From Demequinaceae bacterium (GTDB taxonomy: Bacteria > Actinomycetota > Actinomycetes > Actinomycetales > JAJYRW01): a stretch of DNA of 64,000 nt. The notes beneath the pieces were generated by a model, which made no database searches, had not been told where the DNA came from, and worked only from the letters and a program-made list of their open reading frames with translations. This document shows, piece after piece, positions 1 to 17,756 of this stretch (position 1 is its first letter; each line of letters opens with the position of its first letter). Made by a program: the position numbers and the translations under genes. The DNA lies in NCBI GenBank assembly GCA_027322505.1, contig DAHVRJ010000136.1, positions 8,935 through 72,934 on the forward strand, read 5' to 3'.

Positions 1-2388
1 GGTGGGTTCCAGCCGGCCCGAAATTGTGAGCAGCAGCGCGCTGAGTTGTTCGGAGTTTTTGGCGTAAACGCGCGCGTGGCTGGCCTGCGGGATGGCCAGG
101 TTCACGTCGCGGTAGATGGTGCTGGCGGGGTCTTGCGGGTCGATAAGTGTGAGCCCTTCGGCCACTACCAGGTCGGTGTTATCGGGGGCGGGCCACTGGC
201 GCAGTTCCAGTTCGTGGGTGATGCCCTCACCCTCCACATCAAAGGAGGGCATGGCCTTATCGAGCCAGGCGGGAATCCACCAGGCGCGATCCCCCAGTAA
301 TTGCAGGACGGCTGGTACGAGGGTCATGCGCACCAAGAAGGCATCCACAAATACGCCCACAGCCAGTCCCAGTGCGATGGGTTTGATGTTGGTATCGCCC
401 TCGGGGACGAAAGCTAGGAAGACTGCCACCATGATCACGGCCGCGGCGGTAACCACTTTGGCGGTGGAAACAAACCCGGTTTCGATGCTGCGGCGCGCGT
501 CGCGGGTGTGGACGTAATCCTCGCGAATGCGCGAAACCAGGAAGACCTGATAGTCCATCGCCAGGCCAAAAAGAACACCCATGACAACAATGGGCATGAA
601 ACTGATGACCGGTCCCAGGCGCGCCAGGTTCAAAATCGTTGCCATGAAGCCGTCTTCAAAGACGAGGGCAACCACGCCAAAGGCCGCGCCCACACTAAGT
701 AGATAGCCCAGCGTTGCTTTGATGGGAACGGCGATGGAGCGAAATACCATCGTCAGCAAAATAAGTGACAACCCCACAACAACGATCGCAAATGGCAACA
801 GCGCATCGCCGAGCTTGTCGGAAACGTCAATCCCGACGGCGGTGAAGCCGGTTACAGACAAGTCAAAATGGTGCTCAGCCAAGATGCGCGGCTGCATTTC
901 GCGCAAATCATTGACGAGATCTTTGGTTGCTTGCGAATCCGGCGCGCCGGTGGGAACGACCTGGATGATGCCGGTGTCAGCGGTTTCATTCGGCGTGGCC
1001 AGCGGAATGTCGGCCACCCCGTCGAGGGTCTCGATTTCATCGGCAACCGATTCGATTAAGCCAACCGGGTCATCGCTGGTAATGAGCGAACCGGTGACGA
1101 TGAGGGGGCCATTAAAGCCGGGACCAAAGTGTTCATCTACCAGGTCATAGGTAACGCGCGCCGGGTCGTCAGATGCCAGCGAGGACGCGTCGGGCAGCGC
1201 CAAGCGCAAGTGCAGGGCGGGGAACGCGGCGATACCCACGACGGCCAGCACCGCAATAATTGTCAAAATGGGCCGACGCGTGGCGGCGCGGACCCAGCCG
1301 CGGAAGAAGCCAGCCGACCGGGAGGGCCGGGGTTGGGTGGACTTTGATTTTTTCGAGTTGCGGCCGGGGGCAATTTTCATTCCGGCCGCCCCCAACAGCG
1401 CGGGCAACAGCGTGATGGAAACCAACACGGCAATGCCAACTGCTGCTGATGCTGCAATACCCATCGTGGTCAGGAACGGAATTCCGGCCACGCCCAGACC
1501 CAGTAGGGCGATCATGACCGTAAGTCCGGCAAAAACCACGGCGGAGCCGGCCGTTGCCACGGCTCGGCCAATAGATTCTTCCAGTTCGACACCGCTGCGC
1601 AGCTGGTCTTGATGGCGGGCGACGATGAACAGTGCGTAGTCAATTCCGACGGCCAGGCCGAGCATGAGGGAAAGCATGGGGGTGGTGGAGTTGATTTGGC
1701 CAAATGCCGTCGCCGCAAAAATCAGCAGTGTGGAGATTCCCACGCCGACCAGGGCGTTCAGCAGGGGCATTCCTGCGGCGATAAAGGAGCCAAGCGTAAT
1801 GATCAGCACGATCATGGCAACTGCGACGCCGAGCAACTCCGATGCGCTCAAGCCCGGGAACTCGTTGCTAAAGAGTTCGCCACCCAGGGCAGATTGTGCC
1901 GCCTCGGGCAAAGCAGCGTCCAGGTCGGCGGCCACGTTGGAGAGTTCATCTTTTACCGAGTCGCTGATATCGGTGAATGCGGCGTCCATCTGAATGTTGA
2001 TGATGGCGGCGCTTTCATCATCACTTATGGCGCCCTCGCCCAGCATTTCGTCAAACGGGGAGGCAGCTTGGGCGACCGAGTCGATGTTTTCCAGCTCGGC
2101 TACCGCATCGGTTATCGGATCGGTGACATCGGAATCGTGGACGGTTTCACCCTCGGGGGCGACCACGATCATCTGCGCGGATGCGCCGCTGACCTGCGGG
2201 AACGTGGCTTCCAGCGTGTCGAGGGCCTCTTGCGATTCGGTTCCGGGAATTGAAACTCCGTCGTCCATTCCGTCGCCAAACAGGGCCGCGAGCCCGCCCA
2301 ACAGAACTAGTAGGGCCAGCCACCCGACGAAGACTTTGGCGCGCGAACGGGCCGCCCAGCGTCCTAGGGAATAGAGCGCAGATGACAC
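1..2388 (-). CDS. MMPL family (RND superfamily) membrane transporter, 3' end beyond window edge. The last ~75 in-window codons resemble a degenerate ABC nucleotide-binding domain
   Basis: The minus frame is open from GTG at 2388 to position 1. It is not in the ORF track, presumably because there is no in-window stop. Hand translation gives MSSALYSLGRWAARSRAKVFVGWLALLVLLGG..., ...GMPLLNALVGVGISTLLIF...LGLAVGIDYALFIVARHQDQL..., and in the second half ...VMGVLFGLAMDYQVFLVSRIREDY...LVPAVLQLLGDRAWWIPAWLD. This is the duplicated MMPL transmembrane block pattern. Confidence 0.85.
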   Translation of the reverse strand, partial: MSSALYSLGRWAARSRAKVFVGWLALLVLLGGLAALFGDGMDDGVSIPGTESQEALDTLEATFPQVSGASAQMIVVAPEGETVHDSDVTDPITDAVAELENIDSVAQAASPFDEMLGEGAISDDESAAIINIQMDAAFTDISDSVKDELSNVAADLDAALPEAAQSALGGELFSNEFPGLSASELLGVAVAMIVLIITLGSFIAAGMPLLNALVGVGISTLLIFAATAFGQINSTTPMLSLMLGLAVGIDYALFIVARHQDQLRSGVELEESIGRAVATAGSAVVFAGLTVMIALLGLGVAGIPFLTTMGIAASAAVGIAVLVSITLLPALLGAAGMKIAPGRNSKKSKSTQPRPSRSAGFFRGWVRAATRRPILTIIAVLAVVGIAAFPALHLRLALPDASSLASDDPARVTYDLVDEHFGPGFNGPLIVTGSLITSDDPVGLIESVADEIETLDGVADIPLATPNETADTGIIQVVPTGAPDSQATKDLVNDLREMQPRILAEHHFDLSVTGFTAVGIDVSDKLGDALLPFAIVVVGLSLILLTMVFRSIAVPIKATLGYLLSVGAAFGVVALVFEDGFMATILNLARLGPVISFMPIVVMGVLFGLAMDYQVFLVSRIREDYVHTRDARRSIETGFVSTAKVVTAAAVIMVAVFLAFVPEGDTNIKPIALGLAVGVFVDAFLVRMTLVPAVLQLLGDRAWWIPAWLDKAMPSFDVEGEGITHELELRQWPAPDNTDLVVAEGLTLIDPQDPASTIYRDVNLAIPQASHARVYAKNSEQLSALLLTISGRLEPT

Positions 2389-2420
2389 ACGATCTCCCGA
2401 AAAAATTAAATAAGAACGTC

Positions 2421-2470
2421 GATACAGTGTTGTATCCGATACGCAACTGTATGGGATACAATTTTGTATC
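2421..2470. promoter_or_regulatory. Putative TetR operator array: three 16-bp dyads GATACA-N4-TGTATC spaced every 17 bp
   Basis: GATACAGTGTTGTATC 2421-2436 (perfect), GATACGCAACTGTATG 2438-2453 (imperfect) and GATACAATTTTGTATC 2455-2470 (perfect). All lie in the 109-bp divergent spacer between the MMPL start (2388) and the TetR start (2498). Confidence 0.55.
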
Positions 2471-2497
2471 GCAAACTTCCCCAAGGAGATCCATTCA

Positions 2498-3160
2498 ATG
2501 GGAGAAACCATCAGCGAAGTACCGGCAACAGCGCGGCGGCAGCGCACGCGTGAGCGTTTAATGGACGCCGCACATAAATTATTTGCCAGCCAGGGCGTGC
2601 ACGCGGTGTCGATCGAAGCCATTGCCGAGGCGGCCGGCTATACGCGCGGGGCTTTCTACTCGAACTTCGCGAGCAAAAACGAGCTGTTTTTTGCAATGAT
2701 GCGCCGCGAAATCGAGGTGCAGCTAGACCGACTGCGCGCGGCTATTGCGCGCAACTCGGATCTGGGAACCGGGCGCGCCACCCTCGAAAGCGGCTTCCTC
2801 GCTGAGGTCATTCAGGAAATTTTCAGCGCCCTACCCGATGACCGGACTTGGACGCTCATTCACAGCGAGTTTGAACTCCTGGCGCTGCGTGATCCAGCGG
2901 CGGCGCCCGAATTTTTAGCCAATGAAGCCCTCTTTCGCACCGAGCTATCCGAAGTGCTTGTTGCGACGGCCGCCACACTGGGATTGCGCTTTCGCATCGA
3001 CCCGCTCCTGGTAACAGATCTCGTACTGGCCCAGGGCAAGCAAGCGATGCGCGAAATGATCTTGCGCGGGGCCGAAGATCCAGCGATTGCCACCCACGAC
3101 ATCGTCTTGAAGACAATGCCGGCGGTGTTACAACAGCTCTTGGAGCCGATTGAGCCGTAG
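2498..3160 (+). CDS. TetR/AcrR family transcriptional regulator
   Basis: N-terminal HTH RERLMDAAHKLFASQGVHAVSIEAIAEAAGYTRGAFYSNFASKNELF. AAGGAG RBS at 2483-2488. Divergent from the MMPL gene. Confidence 0.9.
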   Translation: MGETISEVPATARRQRTRERLMDAAHKLFASQGVHAVSIEAIAEAAGYTRGAFYSNFASKNELFFAMMRREIEVQLDRLRAAIARNSDLGTGRATLESGFLAEVIQEIFSALPDDRTWTLIHSEFELLALRDPAAAPEFLANEALFRTELSEVLVATAATLGLRFRIDPLLVTDLVLAQGKQAMREMILRGAEDPAIATHDIVLKTMPAVLQQLLEPIEP

Positions 3161-10548: not shown

Positions 10549-11862
10549 TTATACGTAGCCCTCGTAGGCCGGCAGGTCGAGCACGCCATTTCCGGAAAGC
10601 CCGAACACAACAACTTCGCCGTCTTGGGCATCGCGAGTATAATTGAGCGCTCCCGCCACCGCGTGCGTGGACTCGGGAGCAGGAATAATGCCTTCGGCGC
10701 GGGCGAAAGTGACACCGGCCTGGAAGGCATCGTCCTGCTCGACTGCAATTGCGTCCATCAAACCCAAATTCACCGCATGAGAAACCATGGGCGCCATACC
10801 GTGATAGCGCAATCCTCCCGCGTGAATGGCGGGCGGCACAAAGTCCTTGCCGAGGGTGTGCATCTTCAAAAGCGGAGTTAAGCCCGCCACGTCACCGTGG
10901 TCATAGCGATATTCCCCCTGGGTAAGTGAGGGGCAAGCCGCCGGTTCGCATGCCACGAAGCGCGTCGTAGTCCCCTCGCGCAAATTCTGCCCCAGCGCTG
11001 GGAACGTAAGCCCAGCAAGGTTCGAACCGCCACCGGCGCAACCGAAGATAATGTCGGCCTGTTCTTCCCCGGCCTCCTCCAACTGCGCCAGCATCTCTTG
11101 GCCAATCACCGTTTGGTGCAGCATCACGTGGTTGAGAACACTGCCCAGCGAGTAGTGGGCCTGGGGATCTTTCGCGGCGACCTCGACAGCCTCGGAAATT
11201 GCCATTCCCAGCGATCCGGTGGTGTCCGGGAACTCCTCCAACATGGCGCGTCCGGCTTCGGTTAAATCCGAGGGTGAGGGGTGACAGCTTCCCCCATAGA
11301 CCTCCATTTGATGGCGGCGATACGGCTTGGAATCAAATGAGGTGCGTACCTGCCACACTTCGCATTCCAGCCCGAGCAGCGCGCACGCCATGGCCAGCGA
11401 GGCGCCCCACTGCCCGGCACCGGTCTCAGTTGTGAGCTTGGTGATGCCCGCGGCCGCGTTGTAATAAGCCTGCGCCACTGAGGTGTTCGGTTTATGGGAT
11501 CCAACCGGGCTGACGCCCTCATACTTATAGTAAATCCGCGCTTTAGTGCCGATAGCACGCTCCAAGCGTGAGGCCCGCACAAGCGGGGCGGGGCGCCACA
11601 TGGCGTAAATCTCGCGGACGGTTTGCGGTATTTCGATGTATCTTTCCGTGGCTACTTCCTGCTCAATTAGGGCAGGCGGAAATAGCGGAGCCAAATCATC
11701 AGGAGTAAGAGGCTCTTTCGTGCCGGGATGTAGGTGCGGGGGCACGGGTTCGGGCAGATCGGCTGCCAGGTTATACCAGTGCGTGGGAATCTTTGTCGGA
11801 ACTGGAATTCCAAGTGGTTCGACTCCGCGAAAATGAGGGCTTTGAGCGCCGGTTTCAACCAT
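10549..11862 (-). CDS. TrpB-like PLP-dependent enzyme (tryptophan synthase beta chain type 2, stand-alone)
   Basis: [17 protein letters not shown] (PLP-lysine region), [24 protein letters not shown]. The long N-terminal extension is typical of TrpB2. GAGGA RBS. Confidence 0.9.
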
Positions 11863-12150
11863 GACGTCCTCGTCTGCTCGATGGGGTAATTCACCACATA
11901 ATGTAGCGGAGCGGATTTACCACTGGGTTCTGCGCTCGTTTCAATGGGTGACCGCTAGGTGCTGCGTTCGTTTCTAGGGTGATCGCGTTCTTTGGCAGCG
12001 CCGCGTATTTTCTAAATGATCACTTATTTCTAATGCGATCATGAAATAGCGGTGCTAAAGTTTTTCGGTAAGCCACTCGCCCCGGACCCCGGCGACTCAC
12101 AGTTGCTCCAAATTCCTGGCAACACGAATACGGAATAGGAGTGGCACATC

Positions 12151-12579
12151 ATGTCACCGAAAAAGCAGACCCGGCTTTCCGGTAATTTCGTGCGAGCAGT
12201 TGAACAAGAACTGGCAAATCCCGAGCGCGACGCTGTTGCCATCATGTCACTGAACCTGGGATGTCCCCACGATCTTTTTGCCCGCACACAGGCGCATCTG
12301 CTGCGCGAAACCGTCGCCTTATTACCAGCTTTTGCCCCGGCTTTTAAAACCATGGATATCCGCGCTGATCGGATATTTGCATTGACCGCTGGGACCGTGT
12401 CGGAACTGATGGATTTAGTAAACGACACCCACCACAGTCTCATCGTGCTGGAGGTGAAACATCCCGGTCTCGTTAAGTTCTGCATGAGCTTGGCTGTGGC
12501 AAAACCAGGAGATAGCGCGCAAGACCTACTCGAACGGGCACACGACATGCTCGATGCAGCAGTAATGGACTTCTCATGA
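12151..12579 (+). CDS. Hypothetical protein, probable degenerate GGDEF-like domain
   Basis: GGAG RBS, and ATGA overlap with the next gene. The pattern LSGNFVRA...AVAIMSLNLG...HLLRETVALL...DIRADRIFALTAG...FCMSLAVAKPGDSAQDLLERAHDMLDAA follows the GGDEF-fold order, but reads ADRIF where GGDEF is expected. Confidence 0.6.
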   Translation: MSPKKQTRLSGNFVRAVEQELANPERDAVAIMSLNLGCPHDLFARTQAHLLRETVALLPAFAPAFKTMDIRADRIFALTAGTVSELMDLVNDTHHSLIVLEVKHPGLVKFCMSLAVAKPGDSAQDLLERAHDMLDAAVMDFS

Positions 12580-12914
12580 CCGTGCCGGTACCCGGGGGGC
12601 TTGTGCAGGTTTTATGGGATGAAAAACGCACGTTGGTTGCGCTCAGTGGCGAAATCACCGCGGCCATCGCCGCGGAAATACAAGAGGCCGCGGGCATCGC
12701 GCGTTCGCGAAAACAACCCCTGGATATTGATGCACGGCACGTAACGCGTATTGACGCGCCCGGCTTCGCCGGATTAGCAAAACTAGCACTCCATAGATCC
12801 AGCGCCGTGCGTTTGCTGTATCCGTCCCCCGCAATTTGCTTTATTGTGTCTCTAACCGGGCTCGATGATCACGTGGAGATCGTAAGTACGCCGGACCTGA
12901 TTGGCGAGAATTAG
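12576..12914 (+). CDS. STAS domain protein (anti-sigma-factor antagonist-like)
   Basis: TLVALSGEITAAIAAEIQEA...LDIDARHVTRIDAPGFAGLAKL is a STAS pattern. Translationally coupled to its neighbours. Confidence 0.8.
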   Translation: MTVPVPGGLVQVLWDEKRTLVALSGEITAAIAAEIQEAAGIARSRKQPLDIDARHVTRIDAPGFAGLAKLALHRSSAVRLLYPSPAICFIVSLTGLDDHVEIVSTPDLIGEN

Positions 12915-12939
12915 TGCTTGAGAAAAGGAATGATTCCAA

Positions 12940-13647
12940 GTGCCCGACCATTCAAAAGTGTTTACGGCACTGTCGGATTTCATTCGAACGCTCCTGACGC
13001 CTTACGACATCGATCTAGCGCTCAATGATCTAGCGATTCGACTTTGTGAGCTTTTGGAAGTCGAAGGAGCCGGGGTTTCGTTAGCCAAGGATGATCACCT
13101 GCGGCTGGCCACCGCGCTGCCGCCCGACATCACTCCGCTGGAGGAAACGCAGTCTGCGCACCAATCTGGCCCCTGCGTTACAGCGTTTCGCAAGGGGCAA
13201 GCCGTCATGGTCAATGACCTACACGATTCCAAGTGCCGCCAAACCTGGCCGGAATACTGTAAAACGGCTGCGGAGATCGACTATCGCGCAGTAGCGGGCA
13301 TCCCCATGAAAATTGAAGACAATGCTTTTGGTGCTATCAATCTGTATTCCAAGCGCGCCCGCGAATGGGGCGAGCGCGAAATATTCTTAACGCAGACCTT
13401 CGCCGATGCCGCCACTGTCTACCTGCTGAATGCTTCCACCTTCGACCGCGAACGCGTGCTGAACAAGCACCTGCAACACGCGCTCGACTCTCGCGTCCTG
13501 GTGGAACAAGCCAAGGGCATCATTGCCGAAGCGCGCGGCATTACCGTCGATGAGGCCTTTGAACTTATTCGCCGCCAGGCGCGGTCACGCAACGCCTCGT
13601 TACGGTCAGTAGCCGAAGCGATAGTGACGCTGGGATTGCGGCTGTAG
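12940..13647 (+). CDS. GAF and ANTAR domain-containing RNA-binding regulator
   Basis: C-terminal ANTAR motif LDSRVLVEQAKGIIAEARGITVDEAFELIRRQARSRNASLRSVAEAIV. N-terminal GAF-like ...AVAGIPMKIEDNAFGAINLYS. AAGGAA RBS. Confidence 0.88.
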   Translation: MPDHSKVFTALSDFIRTLLTPYDIDLALNDLAIRLCELLEVEGAGVSLAKDDHLRLATALPPDITPLEETQSAHQSGPCVTAFRKGQAVMVNDLHDSKCRQTWPEYCKTAAEIDYRAVAGIPMKIEDNAFGAINLYSKRAREWGEREIFLTQTFADAATVYLLNASTFDRERVLNKHLQHALDSRVLVEQAKGIIAEARGITVDEAFELIRRQARSRNASLRSVAEAIVTLGLRL

Positions 13648-13662
13648 AGATGCCGTCCTTAA

Positions 13663-14283
13663 TTAACCTTTGGCGGTAAACCGCCGGGTCAGGGGCGTCG
13701 TTAGGGGGCTGAGCAGCAGATAGACCGCGACAGTAATACAGATTCCTAAAACCGCGCCGCCTAGCACGTCGTGCGGAAAATGGGCGCCGGTCGCGATGCG
13801 TAATGCTCCGATGGCCAGAGCAGCCAGATAAGCAAGGAGCGCCCAGCGATTCGTAGTAATAATCATGATGCCCGTTGCCACGGCAAAAGCAATCGTGGCG
13901 TGGTTGGAGGGAAAAGACCAGTCCCCCACCGCCGGACAATCATCCAAGATGAGAAGTTCGCGGCAGGGGCGTTCCTGGGTTAAAAAAATCTTGATCGCTT
14001 CGCTCAAAAGATAAGCCGTGATGATGCCGATTCCCGCCATTACTGCCACGATGATGCGCCGGGCCTCCAGTCGGCGAAAACCCCAGGCCACGAGCCCGAA
14101 GGCGGCTATCAGCCCCAGCATCAAGATCTCAGTCAGCCGGCTGGGAACGGGAATGTCGAGTTCGACAATTGACACGTACAGGTCGCCCGATACGCCCTTA
14201 AGAAGCAGCGCGCTGGGCACGAGAATCAGCGCGATGAGAAGCCATATGCCGGCTTTTTGGGCAGAGATGCGGGCTGCGGTCAT
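13663..14283 (-). CDS. PAP2 family lipid phosphate phosphatase
   Basis: The three PAP2 motifs: KIFLTQERP, PSNH and GAHFPHDV. Six TM segments. GGAGG RBS. Confidence 0.85.
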   Translation of the reverse strand: MTAARISAQKAGIWLLIALILVPSALLLKGVSGDLYVSIVELDIPVPSRLTEILMLGLIAAFGLVAWGFRRLEARRIIVAVMAGIGIITAYLLSEAIKIFLTQERPCRELLILDDCPAVGDWSFPSNHATIAFAVATGIMIITTNRWALLAYLAALAIGALRIATGAHFPHDVLGGAVLGICITVAVYLLLSPLTTPLTRRFTAKG

Positions 14284-14333
14284 TTCTGCCGCCTCCTAGA
14301 AACTGGATTGCAGGTTAAGCGATCTGGCCACTG

Positions 14334-15020
14334 TTAACTGTAAAAGAGTGCCATGCATGGCCCGATTACGATGATCCACGCCGCTGCCATGATGATGAGC
14401 ACACCAGTGGCGAAGGGTCGCAATTGCCGGAAAACCATGCCGATAGCCGCGGCTACGGGAACTGCCAAGGTAATGATCAGCGCGACATACCACTTTCCCA
14501 TCATCGCCGCCCAAAACATCAGCCCCACCACGATAGCGGCGAAGATCAGGCCCACTCCGGCCCCGATTCCGACTTTGGCGCCAAAAGACAGGTTCTGCTG
14601 TGGCGGCTGATAAGGACCGTAGGGGTTGGCACCCGGCGGAGCGTATGGGCCGGATGGATATTGCCCTGGGGGCGGCGCGCTCGGTGCGTACGGGCCGGGC
14701 TGCGCTCCAGGTGGATACGGGCCCGGCGAATGTGGCCCCGGCGGCGAGTGAGCACCAGGTGGATACGGGCCCGGCGGCGGCTGTTGATAAGAAGCCGGCG
14801 GCTGCTGCCACCCCGGCGGCGGAGCAGGCTGCTGATGCGGCGGCATTTGATGAGGCGGTTGCGGAGCACCCGGCGCCGGTTCAGGGCTGAGCGGCGGTTC
14901 CCCACCCGGCGCGCTCCAGGCCGTGGGTGGACGCCAGGCTGCAGACTCGCTCGGCGAATCATTTGGCGCGTCAGAGGATGAACCGCTCGGCGAATCGTTG
15001 TTCTCAGGCAGGTTGTTCAC
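14334..15020 (-). CDS. Proline-rich membrane protein
   Basis: About 140 aa of P/Q/G/Y-rich N-terminus (PPPGWQQPPASYQQPPPGPYPPGA...) followed by TM helices. GTG start with AAGGGGG RBS. Overlaps the upstream gene by 17 nt. Confidence 0.7.
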   Translation of the reverse strand: MNNLPENNDSPSGSSSDAPNDSPSESAAWRPPTAWSAPGGEPPLSPEPAPGAPQPPHQMPPHQQPAPPPGWQQPPASYQQPPPGPYPPGAHSPPGPHSPGPYPPGAQPGPYAPSAPPPGQYPSGPYAPPGANPYGPYQPPQQNLSFGAKVGIGAGVGLIFAAIVVGLMFWAAMMGKWYVALIITLAVPVAAAIGMVFRQLRPFATGVLIIMAAAWIIVIGPCMALFYS

Positions 15021-15822
15021 TGGGTGCCCCCTTTGGTGTTGCAGTCGTAGTTAATGCTGTAAATACGCCCCGGCGGGCCTTCCAAATAAGCCGCGCCATG
15101 AGCAGTGGGAACGTCACCATCAAAAACAGTTGGGGCCGGGTAAAACCAAGCCACGCGATGTTATTGCCGCGCACGAACTCGACTCCGAAACGAAACAGCG
15201 CGTAACCGGCAATAAAAAGGGTGAGGGTTTCACCAGCGGCAATGTCGCGGTGTCGAAGCCAAAACCACAGCAGGCCAAAGGCAATGGCATGAAAAATAAT
15301 CTCGTATACGAAGCTGGGGTGCAGGCCGGTATTTGCGGGCGATCCCACCCGCATGGCGGCAGCCGGATCCAACATAATTCCCCAGCCCCCGCCCGTTGGG
15401 GTGCCGGGGCGCTCGGTCAGTAGACAGCCGATCCGCCCGATCACCATCGCCAGTGCCACCGCCGGCGCAAATAAATCACCCGTCCGGTCTGGGTATCGCA
15501 CGATCATCTTGGCCACGTGCACGCCCAGCCAGGCGCCAAACAGCCCGCTCAAAATCGAGGCGTTGCCGGTCATCATCTGTTCGGCAAACGAGGCATTCTT
15601 CGACATATCTAGGTGCTGCAACCACGTGCCAAGACGGGCAAAAATTGCCGCTCCAAGAAGCGCTCCCAACACCACGTAGGCAATGCGATGGTCTTCCACG
15701 CCCCGCCGCCGCTTTTCAATGATGAAAATCAGCCCGCCGGCGCCAACCCCCAGCGCCACAAAAAATGCGTGCGTATCAATCGGCGGCGCCCACTCGATCA
15801 GGTCTTGCAGCGTGGGATACAT
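15004..15822 (-). CDS. Prolipoprotein diacylglyceryl transferase (Lgt) family protein, divergent
   Basis: Lgt-like HPSFVYEIIFHAIAFGLLWF and VIGRIGCLLTERPGTP. The canonical GNF.N.E signature is not conserved. GGAG RBS. Confidence 0.8.
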   Translation of the reverse strand: MYPTLQDLIEWAPPIDTHAFFVALGVGAGGLIFIIEKRRRGVEDHRIAYVVLGALLGAAIFARLGTWLQHLDMSKNASFAEQMMTGNASILSGLFGAWLGVHVAKMIVRYPDRTGDLFAPAVALAMVIGRIGCLLTERPGTPTGGGWGIMLDPAAAMRVGSPANTGLHPSFVYEIIFHAIAFGLLWFWLRHRDIAAGETLTLFIAGYALFRFGVEFVRGNNIAWLGFTRPQLFLMVTFPLLMARLIWKARRGVFTALTTTATPKGAPSEQPA

Positions 15823-15825
15823 GTG

Positions 15826-16149
15826 TTAGCTCCAAACTCCCATCCACAGCTTGACCCAAAACGGTATCGCCACCGCGGCCAAAACCGTAACAGTGATCAG
15901 GTATGCCAAAACAACGCGCGTATCGCCCAGTTTGCAGCGCGAGCGCATTAATCCACCGCGGCGGGCTTTTATGTAACCGCTGATTGCGATGAGACCAAAA
16001 GTAAGGACGGCAAGTGGTCCCGTTAGTGCGGCAATGATCGCAATCGTCGTAAATACGCACAGGCGCAGCGGGTCGAAGGGCGGGTGGGGGTCCGCAACCG
16101 TTTCGTCTCGCTGATTGAGCTGGGAGTAGTCGAATTCGGTGTTGTTCAT
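15826..16149 (-). CDS. Small membrane protein (about 107 aa, 3 predicted TM)
   Basis: I prefer the ATG at 16149 (MNNTEFDYSQL...), which forms an ATGA overlap with the radical SAM stop. The track ORF extends to 16245, inside the upstream gene. Confidence 0.55.
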   Translation of the reverse strand: MNNTEFDYSQLNQRDETVADPHPPFDPLRLCVFTTIAIIAALTGPLAVLTFGLIAISGYIKARRGGLMRSRCKLGDTRVVLAYLITVTVLAAVAIPFWVKLWMGVWS

Positions 16150-17756
16150 AGCGCTCGCAGGGATAGTTGGCGCTGCCCCGTTGCGGTAGAAATGCGGCTG
16201 TCGGAAAGTGGCTTCCACGCCTGCACCGCGCAAAAAGGCGCGCACTGATGGTTAGAGGTCTCTTCGTTGACGGTGGCCACGTGGACGCAGCACTGAATGA
16301 GTCGCTCTTCAATCATGGTGTTGATGTCCATGAAGGGCTTAATGGTGATGCGCAATACGCGCTCAGCCAGCATGCGGCGCATGCGCTGATGCTGTCCGGG
16401 AAGTTTGGATGCCGCCAATGTGGTCAGCGTTCCAATGCCCAGATCGCAGTTCACGCAAATATCGCGCCAGATATCAACCATGGTCGGGTGTGAGAGTGAT
16501 GACTGTTCGCTCAGCAGGTCCATTAGGGAACTTTTAACAACCTCGCGCACCTCCTTGTTGAAGTCGGAGTCCGCAATGCGGTTGGCGATAACGTCGGGGT
16601 TTATATCGAGGAACTCTTTGAGCCGGTCATGCCCGATGAGTGCCACCAGGGATTGCCACTGGTTGGAATCATCTTTTAGAAAATAGCCAACGGAGCAGCA
16701 GTGCGGGTGGCTGCACGGCAGCGCAGTGAGATCTTGCCACGTTATTTCGCCGTTCGTCTGCGGCCCCAACCGCGCAAGGACGCCCGTATGGGTAAGCCGA
16801 TCTTGCGGGTCAACTCCCGCGGAGCGTCCCGAGCCAAAAACTGGCTGAATGGTTACCCCACCTACATAGGGGGTTTCCTTGGCGCGGTTGATCACCGCAC
16901 CGATCTCATCGTCGTTCACGCCCAGCGCCGCGGTCATGGTCAAAGTCATAAACACGCCGGATTTGGCTAACCGGTCGATGGCTTGATCTTTGAACCTGCG
17001 AATGTCTCCGCCGCGGTGGTGACGTGAGGCTTCTTCCGACTCACCGTCGAATTGGAGGTAAATCTCAACACGTTCTCGATGCTTTTTAAGCACGCCCACA
17101 AATTCGTCGTCTTTCGCGATGCGCAAACCGTTCGTGTTGATCAAAATCCGCACGATCGGCCGGGCGACTAGGTGCTCCAGGAGTTGTTCCAGGTAGGGAT
17201 ACAACGTGGGCTCGCCACCCGAGAGCATCACGACGTCCAACCGGTCGTTTTCCTTCTCCAACCGCGCATCGATCGAATCAAGAACCTCTTGCAATGGCGC
17301 GACGTTCGCTAGCGCGGGGCTGGCAGAAGCAAAACAGGTCGGGCACTGCAAATTGCAGTGATCGGTGATGTCTTCTAAAAGAATGCATGTGTGCTGGGTT
17401 TGCATTTCCGGTAAGCCATCCTCATAGGCCTCCGGCACCGGCTTGAAGTTGCCTTGCACATCGGGAAGATGTTCCTTAGTGGGCGCCGTCCACTGCTCGA
17501 GATAGGTCAGAATTTCAGCGGACTCGTCATAAAGGGTGCGCACCAGACCGTGCTCACGGCACCCCCGCTCCAGCCACACCACACCGTCCCGATCTGCTAA
17601 CCAACCCGAAAGCCGTTGCACTTCTGCCAGCGGCTGGTCCGGATTTTCTTCGTGGCAGTGGGGGCAAAACGCGTTGACATATCGATGTAATCGGTAATTA
17701 CGCAGCGGCATACCCGCGCCGGCAGAAGCTGTCATGCAGGTCACCCTACCGACCAC
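16146..17756 (-). CDS. Radical SAM protein with N-terminal Cys/His ribbon and C-terminal Cys clusters
   Basis: Core CNLQCPTC followed by MLSGGEPTLYP. N-terminal FCPHCH...(31 aa)...GCREHG. C-terminal PCSHPHCC, CVNCD, QCCVH and CAPFC. Alternative starts are at 17735 and 17711. Confidence 0.88.
   Translation of the reverse strand: MVGRVTCMTASAGAGMPLRNYRLHRYVNAFCPHCHEENPDQPLAEVQRLSGWLADRDGVVWLERGCREHGLVRTLYDESAEILTYLEQWTAPTKEHLPDVQGNFKPVPEAYEDGLPEMQTQHTCILLEDITDHCNLQCPTCFASASPALANVAPLQEVLDSIDARLEKENDRLDVVMLSGGEPTLYPYLEQLLEHLVARPIVRILINTNGLRIAKDDEFVGVLKKHRERVEIYLQFDGESEEASRHHRGGDIRRFKDQAIDRLAKSGVFMTLTMTAALGVNDDEIGAVINRAKETPYVGGVTIQPVFGSGRSAGVDPQDRLTHTGVLARLGPQTNGEITWQDLTALPCSHPHCCSVGYFLKDDSNQWQSLVALIGHDRLKEFLDINPDVIANRIADSDFNKEVREVVKSSLMDLLSEQSSLSHPTMVDIWRDICVNCDLGIGTLTTLAASKLPGQHQRMRRMLAERVLRITIKPFMDINTMIEERLIQCCVHVATVNEETSNHQCAPFCAVQAWKPLSDSRISTATGQRQLSLRAL

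Follow-up and report, generated by a model that had tools for sequence, protein, structure and literature searches.

In the AmiC–AmiR system, AmiC sequesters AmiR. Many degenerate GGDEF domains are nucleotide receptors, and those of PelD, PopA and LapD retain the RxxD I-site or other contacts with cyclic diguanylate (c-di-GMP) and are detected by the Pfam profile PF00990. The STAS protein HsbA directly contacts the GGDEF domain of HsbD (PMC5085249). ANTAR proteins are controlled through autoinhibition or dimerisation (PMC7496416), and translational control by ANTAR RNAs at ribosome-binding sites has been described in Actinobacteria (PMC8164766). According to a 2025 review (PMC12591593), GAF-ANTAR is among the commonest ANTAR architectures, and the domain key to its figure of ANTAR and CAT architectures includes STAS_2. 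Here, we analyse a stretch of 64,000 nucleotides from a Demequinaceae bacterium (Actinomycetota; contig DAHVRJ010000136.1), hereafter the window, which contains a three-gene operon encoding a small protein (P1), a single-domain STAS protein and a GAF-ANTAR regulator. The operon leader carries a hairpin that is a member of a covarying motif linked to GAF-ANTAR orthologues. A reading made earlier from the sequence alone (the original prediction) had proposed that signals flow from P1 as a nucleotide sensor, through STAS partner switching, to the ANTAR protein. Loci compared with the window are designated by L numbers.

Two hairpins were predicted by RNAalifold in the leader, with compensatory and G·U changes, and the block that holds them (12077–12123) is far more conserved than its flanks in all relatives. 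The hairpins are separated by a linker of 6 nt. Hairpin 1 has a covarying stem of 5 bp and a 9-nt loop, CCRGACCCC; beside distant GAF-ANTAR orthologues the loop is the same and the stems differ. The 6-bp stem of hairpin 2 shows a compensatory change from C-G to U-A in L003 and changes from U·G to C-G elsewhere, and it reads GCTGCC/GGCAGC in L007. A covariance model of both hairpins jointly was rejected because MAFFT misaligned hairpin 2 in L003 and L007, and a single-hairpin model was used. The sole significant match of this model in the window is the operon leader (29.2 bits; the next match scores 13.7 bits), and the model also finds loci outside the training set, with the element at the same relative positions.

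The motif, defined by five paired positions and the loop YYRGNCCYY, occurs 48 times in 869 kb of loci, compared with 11.8 times in shuffled sequences. By our own count it is present in approximately 40 of the 80 reference loci. When sites were selected by the loop only, fully complementary flanks were observed at 26 of the 108 sites within 300 nt of a GAF-ANTAR gene and at 20 of the 960 sites elsewhere (odds ratio 15, Fisher p 8e-16, 14 distinct stems). Of the 20 distant paired sites, about half are partner-gene leaders. An alignment of 30 instances contains double changes in four of the five pairs and 31 compensatory cells, compared with 6.5 in shuffles, and 19 of its 150 cells are G·U; these instances were selected for pairing, and the loop-only test is the unbiased one. 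In 11 of the 30 cases (4.1 expected), the element is followed by a further hairpin whose C-rich loop is similar.

A gene on the same strand always follows the element, and in many cases its start codon is no more than 15 nt away. Three types of site were observed. In approximately 20 loci the element lies 20–170 nt after the GAF-ANTAR stop codon on the same strand; in others it lies on the opposite strand, 150–250 nt before the GAF-ANTAR start codon, or in the leader of an upstream partner gene. The opposite-strand and operon-leader occurrences argue that the element is not simply a terminator of the GAF-ANTAR gene. The genes downstream of it encode five ANTAR proteins, five histidine kinases, four STAS proteins, two or three extracytoplasmic function (ECF) sigma factors, a response regulator, a DUF6098 protein, a degenerate GGDEF protein and P1, and STAS-kinase fusion genes are also among them.

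Two further arrangements were seen at individual loci. The leader of the degenerate-GGDEF gene in L031 contains the same hairpin plus a second hairpin, GTGCCGCC-CCGGCCCC-GGCGGCAC. On the minus strand of Nocardioides loci (4700–4835 in L022, with equivalents in L043 and L055), tandem hairpins are followed by the conserved G-rich sequence GGGAGGGAGCTCGGGG and then by a gene for a GAF-GAF-HisKA_3 kinase. Its complementarity to the loop and 5´ arm of hairpin 1 means that GGGAGGGAGCTCGGGG may form an alternative pairing.

The hairpin motif fits no Rfam family. In the window, Rfam returned only a tRNA at the gathering and E ≤ 1 thresholds, and on short segments it returned chance-level matches only; a match to the c-di-GMP-I-UAU riboswitch at 12098–12160, with 13.4 bits (gathering score 65.9) and E 1.1 in a search of 106 nt, was judged to be due to chance. 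The canonical ANTAR motif consists of two stems of at least 3–4 bp with A1/G4 hexaloops and a linker of 2–25 nt (PMC8164766). The original prediction had suggested a scan for such dual-hairpin targets; in the window this gave no target above chance, with 4 sites compared with 4.1 ± 2.2 in shuffles and none near the operon. The leader hairpins have the tandem stem-loop arrangement of the published definition (at least 3 bp each and a linker of 2–25 nt; PMC8164766). The loop sequences of the motif are absent from the supplement sequences of the actinobacterial ANTAR-RNA survey. An anti-Shine-Dalgarno pairing, CCACUC/GAGUGG, appears in the minimum free energy fold of the window leader but by eye is not conserved in relatives, and was not retained. 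Judged from the extended −10 element listed in Table 1, which the consensus promoter scan did not call, the transcript probably starts a few bases 5´ of the hairpins.

The protein that would read this RNA is the third gene product, in which an ANTAR domain had been recognised earlier; Pfam confirms it at 4.5e-19 and places a GAF domain before it at 3.1e-13. Its homologues form a graded series of 162 proteins, of which the nearest named ones, from Georgenia and Beutenbergiaceae, are approximately 50% identical. The AlphaFold model (predicted local distance difference test, pLDDT, 90) comprises the GAF domain, a helix spanning residues 145–199 and a three-helix ANTAR bundle, and the long predicted helix is a feature that dimeric ANTAR regulators typically have. 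The ANTAR part matches an EutV-like regulator (6wsh), Rv1626 (1s8n) and NasR (4akk). The Foldseek matches of the GAF domain (approximately 1e-8) are generic GAF domains and therefore give no hint of the ligand. There is no GAF-ANTAR structure among the PDB matches, and the literature and databases searched contain no GAF-ANTAR protein with a reported signal, RNA target or structure. Members of this GAF-ANTAR orthogroup in other Actinobacteria have different partners: STAS on its own, kinases or sigma factors.

P1 is a small family, seen nowhere but next to members of this GAF-ANTAR orthogroup. A k-mer-indexed search of 5.8 billion clusters returned 4 matches, and an exhaustive HMMER profile search of 1.84 billion representatives returned 2 clusters; the latter used a narrow initial profile and so underestimates the true family size. 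No relative was found in 185,579 species-representative genomes scanned with the P1 alignment, and a metagenome scan yielded just one further close locus. Divergent members were reached by walking out through the GAF-ANTAR homologues. A 173-aa protein of L096 matches the window P1 at 6e-11 and a 140-aa protein of L007 at 5e-15, and thereby bridges two P1 groups, while a divergently transcribed 140-aa protein of L097 matches the P1 family profile with an hhalign probability of 82% (E 1e-5). The P1 gene adjoins the orthologous GAF-ANTAR gene in all nine lineages found (the window clade, L001/L002, L003, L004/L005, L093/L094, L095, L096, L007/L008 and L097). No P1 homologue is present in the 80 reference-genome loci with more distant GAF-ANTAR orthologues (34–51% identity). 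The co-conservation expected earlier for the three genes thus holds for P1 and GAF-ANTAR in all nine lineages and for the full trio in five; the STAS gene is missing from several.

P1 has no match in Pfam or NCBIfam at E ≤ 10, including PF00990, the profile that the original prediction had named as a check, and Pfam matches none of the 10 family members. Its AlphaFold model, built from five sequences (pLDDT 75.6; predicted template modelling score 0.76), has the order helix, strand, helix, strand, strand, helix, strand, helix. The GGDEF fold is palm-like, with the order α0, β1, α, β2-β3 hairpin, α3, β4, α4. The best Foldseek matches of the model in the PDB are GGDEF domains (6et7, 5llw, 3qyy, 5euh and 4urq), with query template modelling scores (TMq) of 0.58–0.66 and E values of 2e-3 to 3e-2; other palm or ferredoxin-like folds (IS200 TnpA, Cas10, Thg1) reach a TMq of approximately 0.4–0.5. 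In hhalign, a 10-sequence P1 alignment and a small GGDEF alignment are collinear over 125 columns (E 0.0015, probability 17%), and with the close P1 family alone the alignment covers 22 columns. Among all 177,635 distinct PDB sequences, the P1 profile has one match at E ≤ 10, the diguanylate cyclase 4zmm (E 1.1), and this alignment spans the whole GGDEF domain. The P1-GGDEF alignments run from the N-terminal helix to the C-terminal LLxRAxxxL helix, in the same order of elements as in GGDEF. The model, hhalign and the PDB profile are weak lines that agree, and none is significant alone.

A GGDEF protein recognised by Pfam occupies the same place at another locus. In L031, a protein with a PAS and a degenerate GGDEF domain (Pfam 8e-10; RLETGKF instead of RxGGDEF) is in the partner position beside GAF-ANTAR, and its gene (1780–3034, minus strand) lies end to end with the GAF-ANTAR gene. 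The helix LLARADAML is identical in this protein and in the P1 of L003. A sequence bridge from P1 to GGDEF through L031 gave a full-length but weak alignment (E 0.009) with an inconsistent register in the middle region, and was rejected. P1 is probably descended from a GGDEF domain.

In the hhalign register, the GGDEF motif corresponds to A72-D73-R74-I75-F76 of P1, the metal-binding Asp to N35 and the RxxD I-site to AFKT, and the guanine-binding segment NDxxGHxxGD is deleted. The position of the GGDEF motif varies across the family (PERIF, GDQIF, VATIF, GARIR and GTRIR). The residues invariant throughout the family are hydrophobic, except for G81 and R129, of which R129 is the sole polar one. 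Judged from the replacement or deletion of the catalytic, metal-binding and nucleotide-binding motifs, P1 is neither a cyclase nor an I-site-type c-di-GMP receptor. The original prediction had described the first product as following the GGDEF fold order with the catalytic positions replaced. The replacements are borne out by hhalign, and the fold receives weak backing from the AlphaFold model and the profiles, with no Pfam match. The accompanying suggestion that P1 acts as a nucleotide receptor finds no support, given the loss of the RxxD I-site and of the guanine- and metal-binding residues. An adaptor role for P1 is the economical reading.

The second product is a STAS protein, as had been proposed, with Pfam matches to STAS_2 (9e-9) and STAS (2.5e-5) that are both better than the curated cut-offs. 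A profile of the operon STAS proteins matches RsbV (6m36, 2.4e-10), SpoIIAA (1tid, 5.6e-10) and other anti-sigma-factor antagonists in the PDB. Where RsbV (MDSTG) and SpoIIAA (MDSSG) have the phospho-serine, the window STAS has Ala (IDAPG). Orthologues read DPSG, DATG, DARG, DASG and DCAG at this site, which places Ala, Pro or Cys there in all eight lineages aligned; the PDB entry 1tid also reads MDASG. The STAS protein encoded in the window thus cannot, by its predicted sequence, be phosphorylated at the canonical serine, and the Ala at this position makes classical phosphorylation-driven partner switching unlikely in this operon. L004/L005, L093/L094 and L095 keep P1 and GAF-ANTAR but have no STAS gene, which indicates that this subclade has lost it. 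P1 is followed directly by GAF-ANTAR in L004 and L095, and L094 shows the same pattern up to the contig edge. STAS is absent from L097 too, where P1 is divergent. The partner-switching role assigned earlier to STAS accords neither with the Ala nor with these absences (L004, L094, L095 and L097).

STAS and GAF-ANTAR also occur together without P1 (L013, L050, L054 and L063), and an iterative hidden Markov model search identified STAS genes within 5 kb of GAF-ANTAR in approximately 24 of the 80 reference loci, which makes the STAS-ANTAR association a recurrent one. Some of these reference-locus STAS genes are fused to a weakly matching HATPase_c domain or lie beside RsbW-like kinase open reading frames (ORFs). 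An ORF of approximately 310–345 aa with a STAS-like region directly follows GAF-ANTAR in L041 (5829–6767), L052 (5983–7011), L024, L029, L033, L034, L042 and L065, several of which are from Dermatophilaceae; the ORFs of L041 and L052 also have a weak HATPase_c match and the conserved hairpin in the leader. In L063 (2587–4309), two ORFs beside the STAS and GAF-ANTAR genes look RsbW-type by eye (ELATNAIHHA, AVNEIATNSIRY), and some lineages such as this may keep a full partner-switch set.

The features of the operon and its leader are collected in Table 1. The three packed ORFs, the ATGA overlap of P1 and STAS (12576–12579) and the 25-nt gap with a ribosome-binding site before GAF-ANTAR, all noted earlier, are present in the sequence. 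The translational coupling drawn from them agrees with the packing, but the STAS start at the overlapping ATG is in doubt, and the true start may be 12603. L098 and L101 are contigs with a GAF-ANTAR protein identical to that of the window. In L098, one extra G in the G-run 12591–12596 puts the overlapping STAS ATG out of frame, and in both contigs STAS is called as a 103-aa protein from a later start. L099 has GGAGG 5 nt 5´ of the GTG that matches window position 12603, and the STAS of L003 starts at the equivalent of 12603. Four-nucleotide overlaps are kept in L001, L007 and L096, so the genes are tightly packed whichever STAS start holds. The operon with an identical GAF-ANTAR protein was found on at least 13 metagenome contigs from several samples, and is therefore not an assembly artefact.

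Table 1. Coordinates of the operon genes, their leader elements and ribosome-binding sites in the window.
Feature	Position	Strand	Remarks
Probable extended −10 element, TGCTAAAGT	12053..12061	+	Block GGTGYTANNNT in six leader sequences
Hairpin 1, stem TCGCC/GGCGA, 9-nt loop CCGGACCCC	12077..12095	+	RNAalifold
Hairpin 2, stem GTTGCT/GGCAAC, 10-nt loop CCAAATTCCT	12102..12123	+	RNAalifold
Shine-Dalgarno-like GGAG	12138..12141	+	9 nt 5´ of P1 ATG; read from sequence
Gene 1 (P1), small new family, probably degenerate GGDEF-like palm-fold domain	12151..12579	+	142 aa
Gene 2, single-domain STAS, anti-sigma-factor-antagonist family, Ala at phospho-serine position	12576..12914	+	112 aa; alternative start GTG 12603
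Shine-Dalgarno-like AAGGA	12925..12929	+	5´ of gene 3 GTG start; read from sequence
Gene 3, one-component GAF-ANTAR RNA-binding regulator	12940..13647	+	235 aa, GTG start; GAF ~13006-13419, long linker helix, ANTAR ~13468-13626

The remark made earlier that no kinase, phosphatase or sigma factor is encoded nearby was upheld: none was found among the ten neighbouring ORFs scanned (6.8–19.6 kb), and none lies within approximately 6 kb of the operon in the window. Upstream of P1 is a divergent gene for a pyridoxal phosphate-dependent enzyme of the PALP family (10549–11862, minus strand). Between this gene and P1 lies a tandem direct repeat of approximately 29 nt (11919–11979; 79% identical, 32-nt spacing), which was rejected as a dual-hairpin candidate, its second copy being partly deleted in the 94%-identical L091 and its fold z-scores being approximately 0, no better than shuffles. 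At other loci, a RIC-type di-iron protein gene (ScdA_N and hemerythrin) is located directly 5´ of P1 (L001 651–1352, L004 2685–3380 and L095 900–1604), which may hint at a nitrosative or redox context. Downstream on the minus strand, a block (13663–17756) encodes a PAP2 phosphatase, a hypothetical protein, an LGT-like transferase, another hypothetical protein and a radical SAM protein with an HMPTM zinc ribbon; it is syntenic in L003, L004, L093–L095 and L098–L100. A 228-aa ORF at 14334–15020 (minus strand) has a proline- and glutamine-rich N-terminal half and a hydrophobic C-terminal region, and has no Pfam match.

Given the observed domain identities, co-conservation and association of hairpin and gene, we consider the chances evenly balanced that the operon encodes a one-component RNA-binding regulator together with a pair of accessory proteins, has an RNA element in the leader, and works as follows. 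Once the GAF domain senses a ligand, the GAF-ANTAR dimer would bind the leader hairpin or the hairpin pair, and binding would alter translation or read-through of the adjacent gene. In the window the adjacent gene set is the P1-STAS-GAF-ANTAR operon itself, and the control would be autoregulatory; the leader hairpin suggests that the ANTAR protein controls the expression of STAS and P1, and not merely the reverse. P1 would be a catalytically dead GGDEF-like adaptor that binds STAS, GAF-ANTAR or both, adjusting RNA binding through sequestration or release, as AmiC holds AmiR or as HsbA acts on the GGDEF domain of HsbD. P1 and STAS would both be non-enzymatic protein modulators, and no phosphorylation or nucleotide step would be needed. 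Several points weigh against this reading. All binding events and the direction of regulation are inferred, every interaction from gene adjacency. The leader loops are 9–10 nt long and lack the A1/G4 hexaloop signature of known ANTAR targets, the second hairpin is not universal (11 of 30 cases), and all loci were chosen for containing GAF-ANTAR, so that the hairpin figures hold for such loci. The GGDEF call for P1 draws on a five-sequence model (pLDDT 75.6) and profile E values of 0.0015 to 1.1, with nothing from Pfam. In addition, one subclade does without STAS and most lineages lack P1, which implies that neither is a core component.

The hexaloop discrepancy would be explained if the hairpin were not an ANTAR target but a transcription-factor operator in DNA, an mRNA 3´-end or terminator element belonging to the GAF-ANTAR gene, or a C-rich anti-Shine-Dalgarno element needing no protein. 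The position of the element 20–170 nt past the GAF-ANTAR stop codon on the same strand in approximately 20 loci fits such a role, the window element overlaps the expected transcript start, which is a typical operator position, and the C-rich loop may be likened to an anti-Shine-Dalgarno sequence. However, the stems covary around a conserved asymmetric loop, and 19 of the 150 stem cells are G·U pairs, which in DNA are not palindromic. It is also found in operon leaders and on the opposite strand upstream of divergent genes (L014, L022, L043, L055, L049 and L097), no T-tract follows it, and what always follows it is a gene in the same orientation, often starting within 15 nt. We therefore regard a non-ANTAR hairpin as rather unlikely. 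Somewhat less so, though still doubtful, is the possibility that P1 is unrelated to GGDEF, being a lineage-specific small alpha/beta (ferredoxin-like) protein with a generic beta-alpha-beta-beta-alpha-beta likeness, a change that would leave the operon logic as it is. The absence of any Pfam GGDEF match among P1 members, hhalign probabilities of only 10–17%, Foldseek E values of 2e-3 or higher with the IS200 TnpA, Cas10 and Thg1 palm domains also listed, and a model from only five sequences are all compatible with it. The TM-scores to GGDEF domains are nevertheless clearly above those to other folds, the alignments are collinear from the N-terminal helix to the LLxRAxxxL helix, the sole profile match in the PDB is a GGDEF domain, and the degenerate GGDEF of L031 occupies the same genomic position with an identical LLARADAML helix.

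Two explanations keep a more classical signalling role for the accessories. In one, STAS takes part in partner switching with an anti-sigma factor or kinase encoded elsewhere, and its adjacency to GAF-ANTAR reflects co-regulation only. Its membership of the RsbV/SpoIIAA family (2.4e-10) agrees with this, as do the RsbW-like kinase ORFs seen by eye beside STAS in L063, the weak HATPase_c fusions in L041 and L052 and the ECF sigma factor genes that carry the same leader hairpin. Such a role is nonetheless improbable: the phospho-serine is replaced in all eight lineages aligned, no kinase, phosphatase or sigma factor is encoded within approximately 6 kb in the window, and four of five lineages have the STAS gene tightly coupled to P1. 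In the other, which is close to the original prediction, P1 binds c-di-GMP or another nucleotide and signals to STAS by partner switching, and STAS controls the ANTAR protein. The predicted GGDEF-like fold of P1, the general precedent of degenerate GGDEF receptors, the STAS-GGDEF interaction known in HsbA-HsbD and the tight packing of the trio, co-conserved in five lineages, point in this direction. We consider it very improbable, since RxxD is replaced by AFKT, GGDEF by ADRIF and the metal-binding Asp by Asn, NDxxGHxxGD is deleted, and the invariant P1 residues are hydrophobic apart from one Gly and one Arg. Furthermore, STAS has Ala at the phospho-site with no kinase or phosphatase nearby, and L004, L094 and L095 keep P1 and GAF-ANTAR without STAS. 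The signal flow proposed originally, from nucleotide sensor through STAS to ANTAR, is thus disfavoured, and the partners of the GAF-ANTAR orthogroup vary.

Whatever the role of the accessories, the short and well-defined hairpin is a testable candidate target for GAF-ANTAR, for which CCGGAGGGG would be the loop-mutant counterpart of the hairpin 1 loop CCGGACCCC, and it could be used for regulon prediction by covariance-model search. A broader proposal, which we offer tentatively as a possibility short of even chances, is that a large GAF-ANTAR subfamily of Actinobacteria has the CCRGACCCC-loop hairpin as its cognate RNA, which would be a second, non-hexaloop mode of ANTAR recognition. These regulators would stand above partner-switching, ECF-sigma and two-component modules, and a dead GGDEF and a non-phosphorylatable STAS would have been recruited as modulators here. 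If so, ANTAR recognition would extend past A1/G4 hexaloops, and RNA-level control would be tied to STAS, sigma-factor and kinase modules. With the P1 family there would also be a pseudo-GGDEF without nucleotide-binding features, which would warn against equating every GGDEF-like fold with second-messenger signalling.

Like the degenerate domains of PelD, PopA and LapD, P1 probably has a GGDEF-like fold, has lost the GG(D/E)EF active site and presumably plays a non-enzymatic role. In contrast to them, it is a stand-alone protein of 140 aa without an I-site or c-di-GMP contacts, and escapes Pfam. Gene 2 shares the STAS fold, family and single-domain size of the SpoIIAA/RsbV antagonists, whereas its phospho-Ser is replaced by Ala (as in MDASG of 1tid) and no kinase/anti-sigma factor or PP2C phosphatase is found in the neighbourhood scanned. 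The pairing of the P1 and STAS genes corresponds to that in HsbA-HsbD of Pseudomonas aeruginosa, and also SiaC-SiaD, in which a single-domain STAS-type antagonist contacts a GGDEF-fold domain. However, HsbD is an active cyclase and HsbA requires phosphorylation of Ser56 to bind it, whereas here the GGDEF-like protein lacks an active site, the STAS lacks the phospho-serine and the output is an RNA-binding protein.

Gene 3 is built like NasR (NIT-ANTAR) and AmiC-AmiR, with a sensor domain, a long helical linker and a three-helix ANTAR bundle. In the published ANTAR cases, what gates RNA binding is either relief of autoinhibition or a partner protein (PMC7496416). AmiC-AmiR is a case of the latter kind. 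Here, a GAF domain acts as the sensor, a STAS protein and a pseudo-GGDEF take the place of the periplasmic-binding-protein-like AmiC as accessories, and the candidate RNA has no hexaloops. As in ANTAR-target RNAs, two tandem stem-loops, here with a 6-nt linker, lie in a 5´ leader near the ribosome-binding site, and in several loci the two loops are alike, which would suit a dimeric binder. The loops differ from those of ANTAR targets in being 9–10 nt long with the consensus CYRGNCCYY and without A1/G4, and the canonical motif scan misses them. We regard the locus as a one-component ANTAR system whose accessories are unusual and whose candidate RNA target departs from the canonical form.

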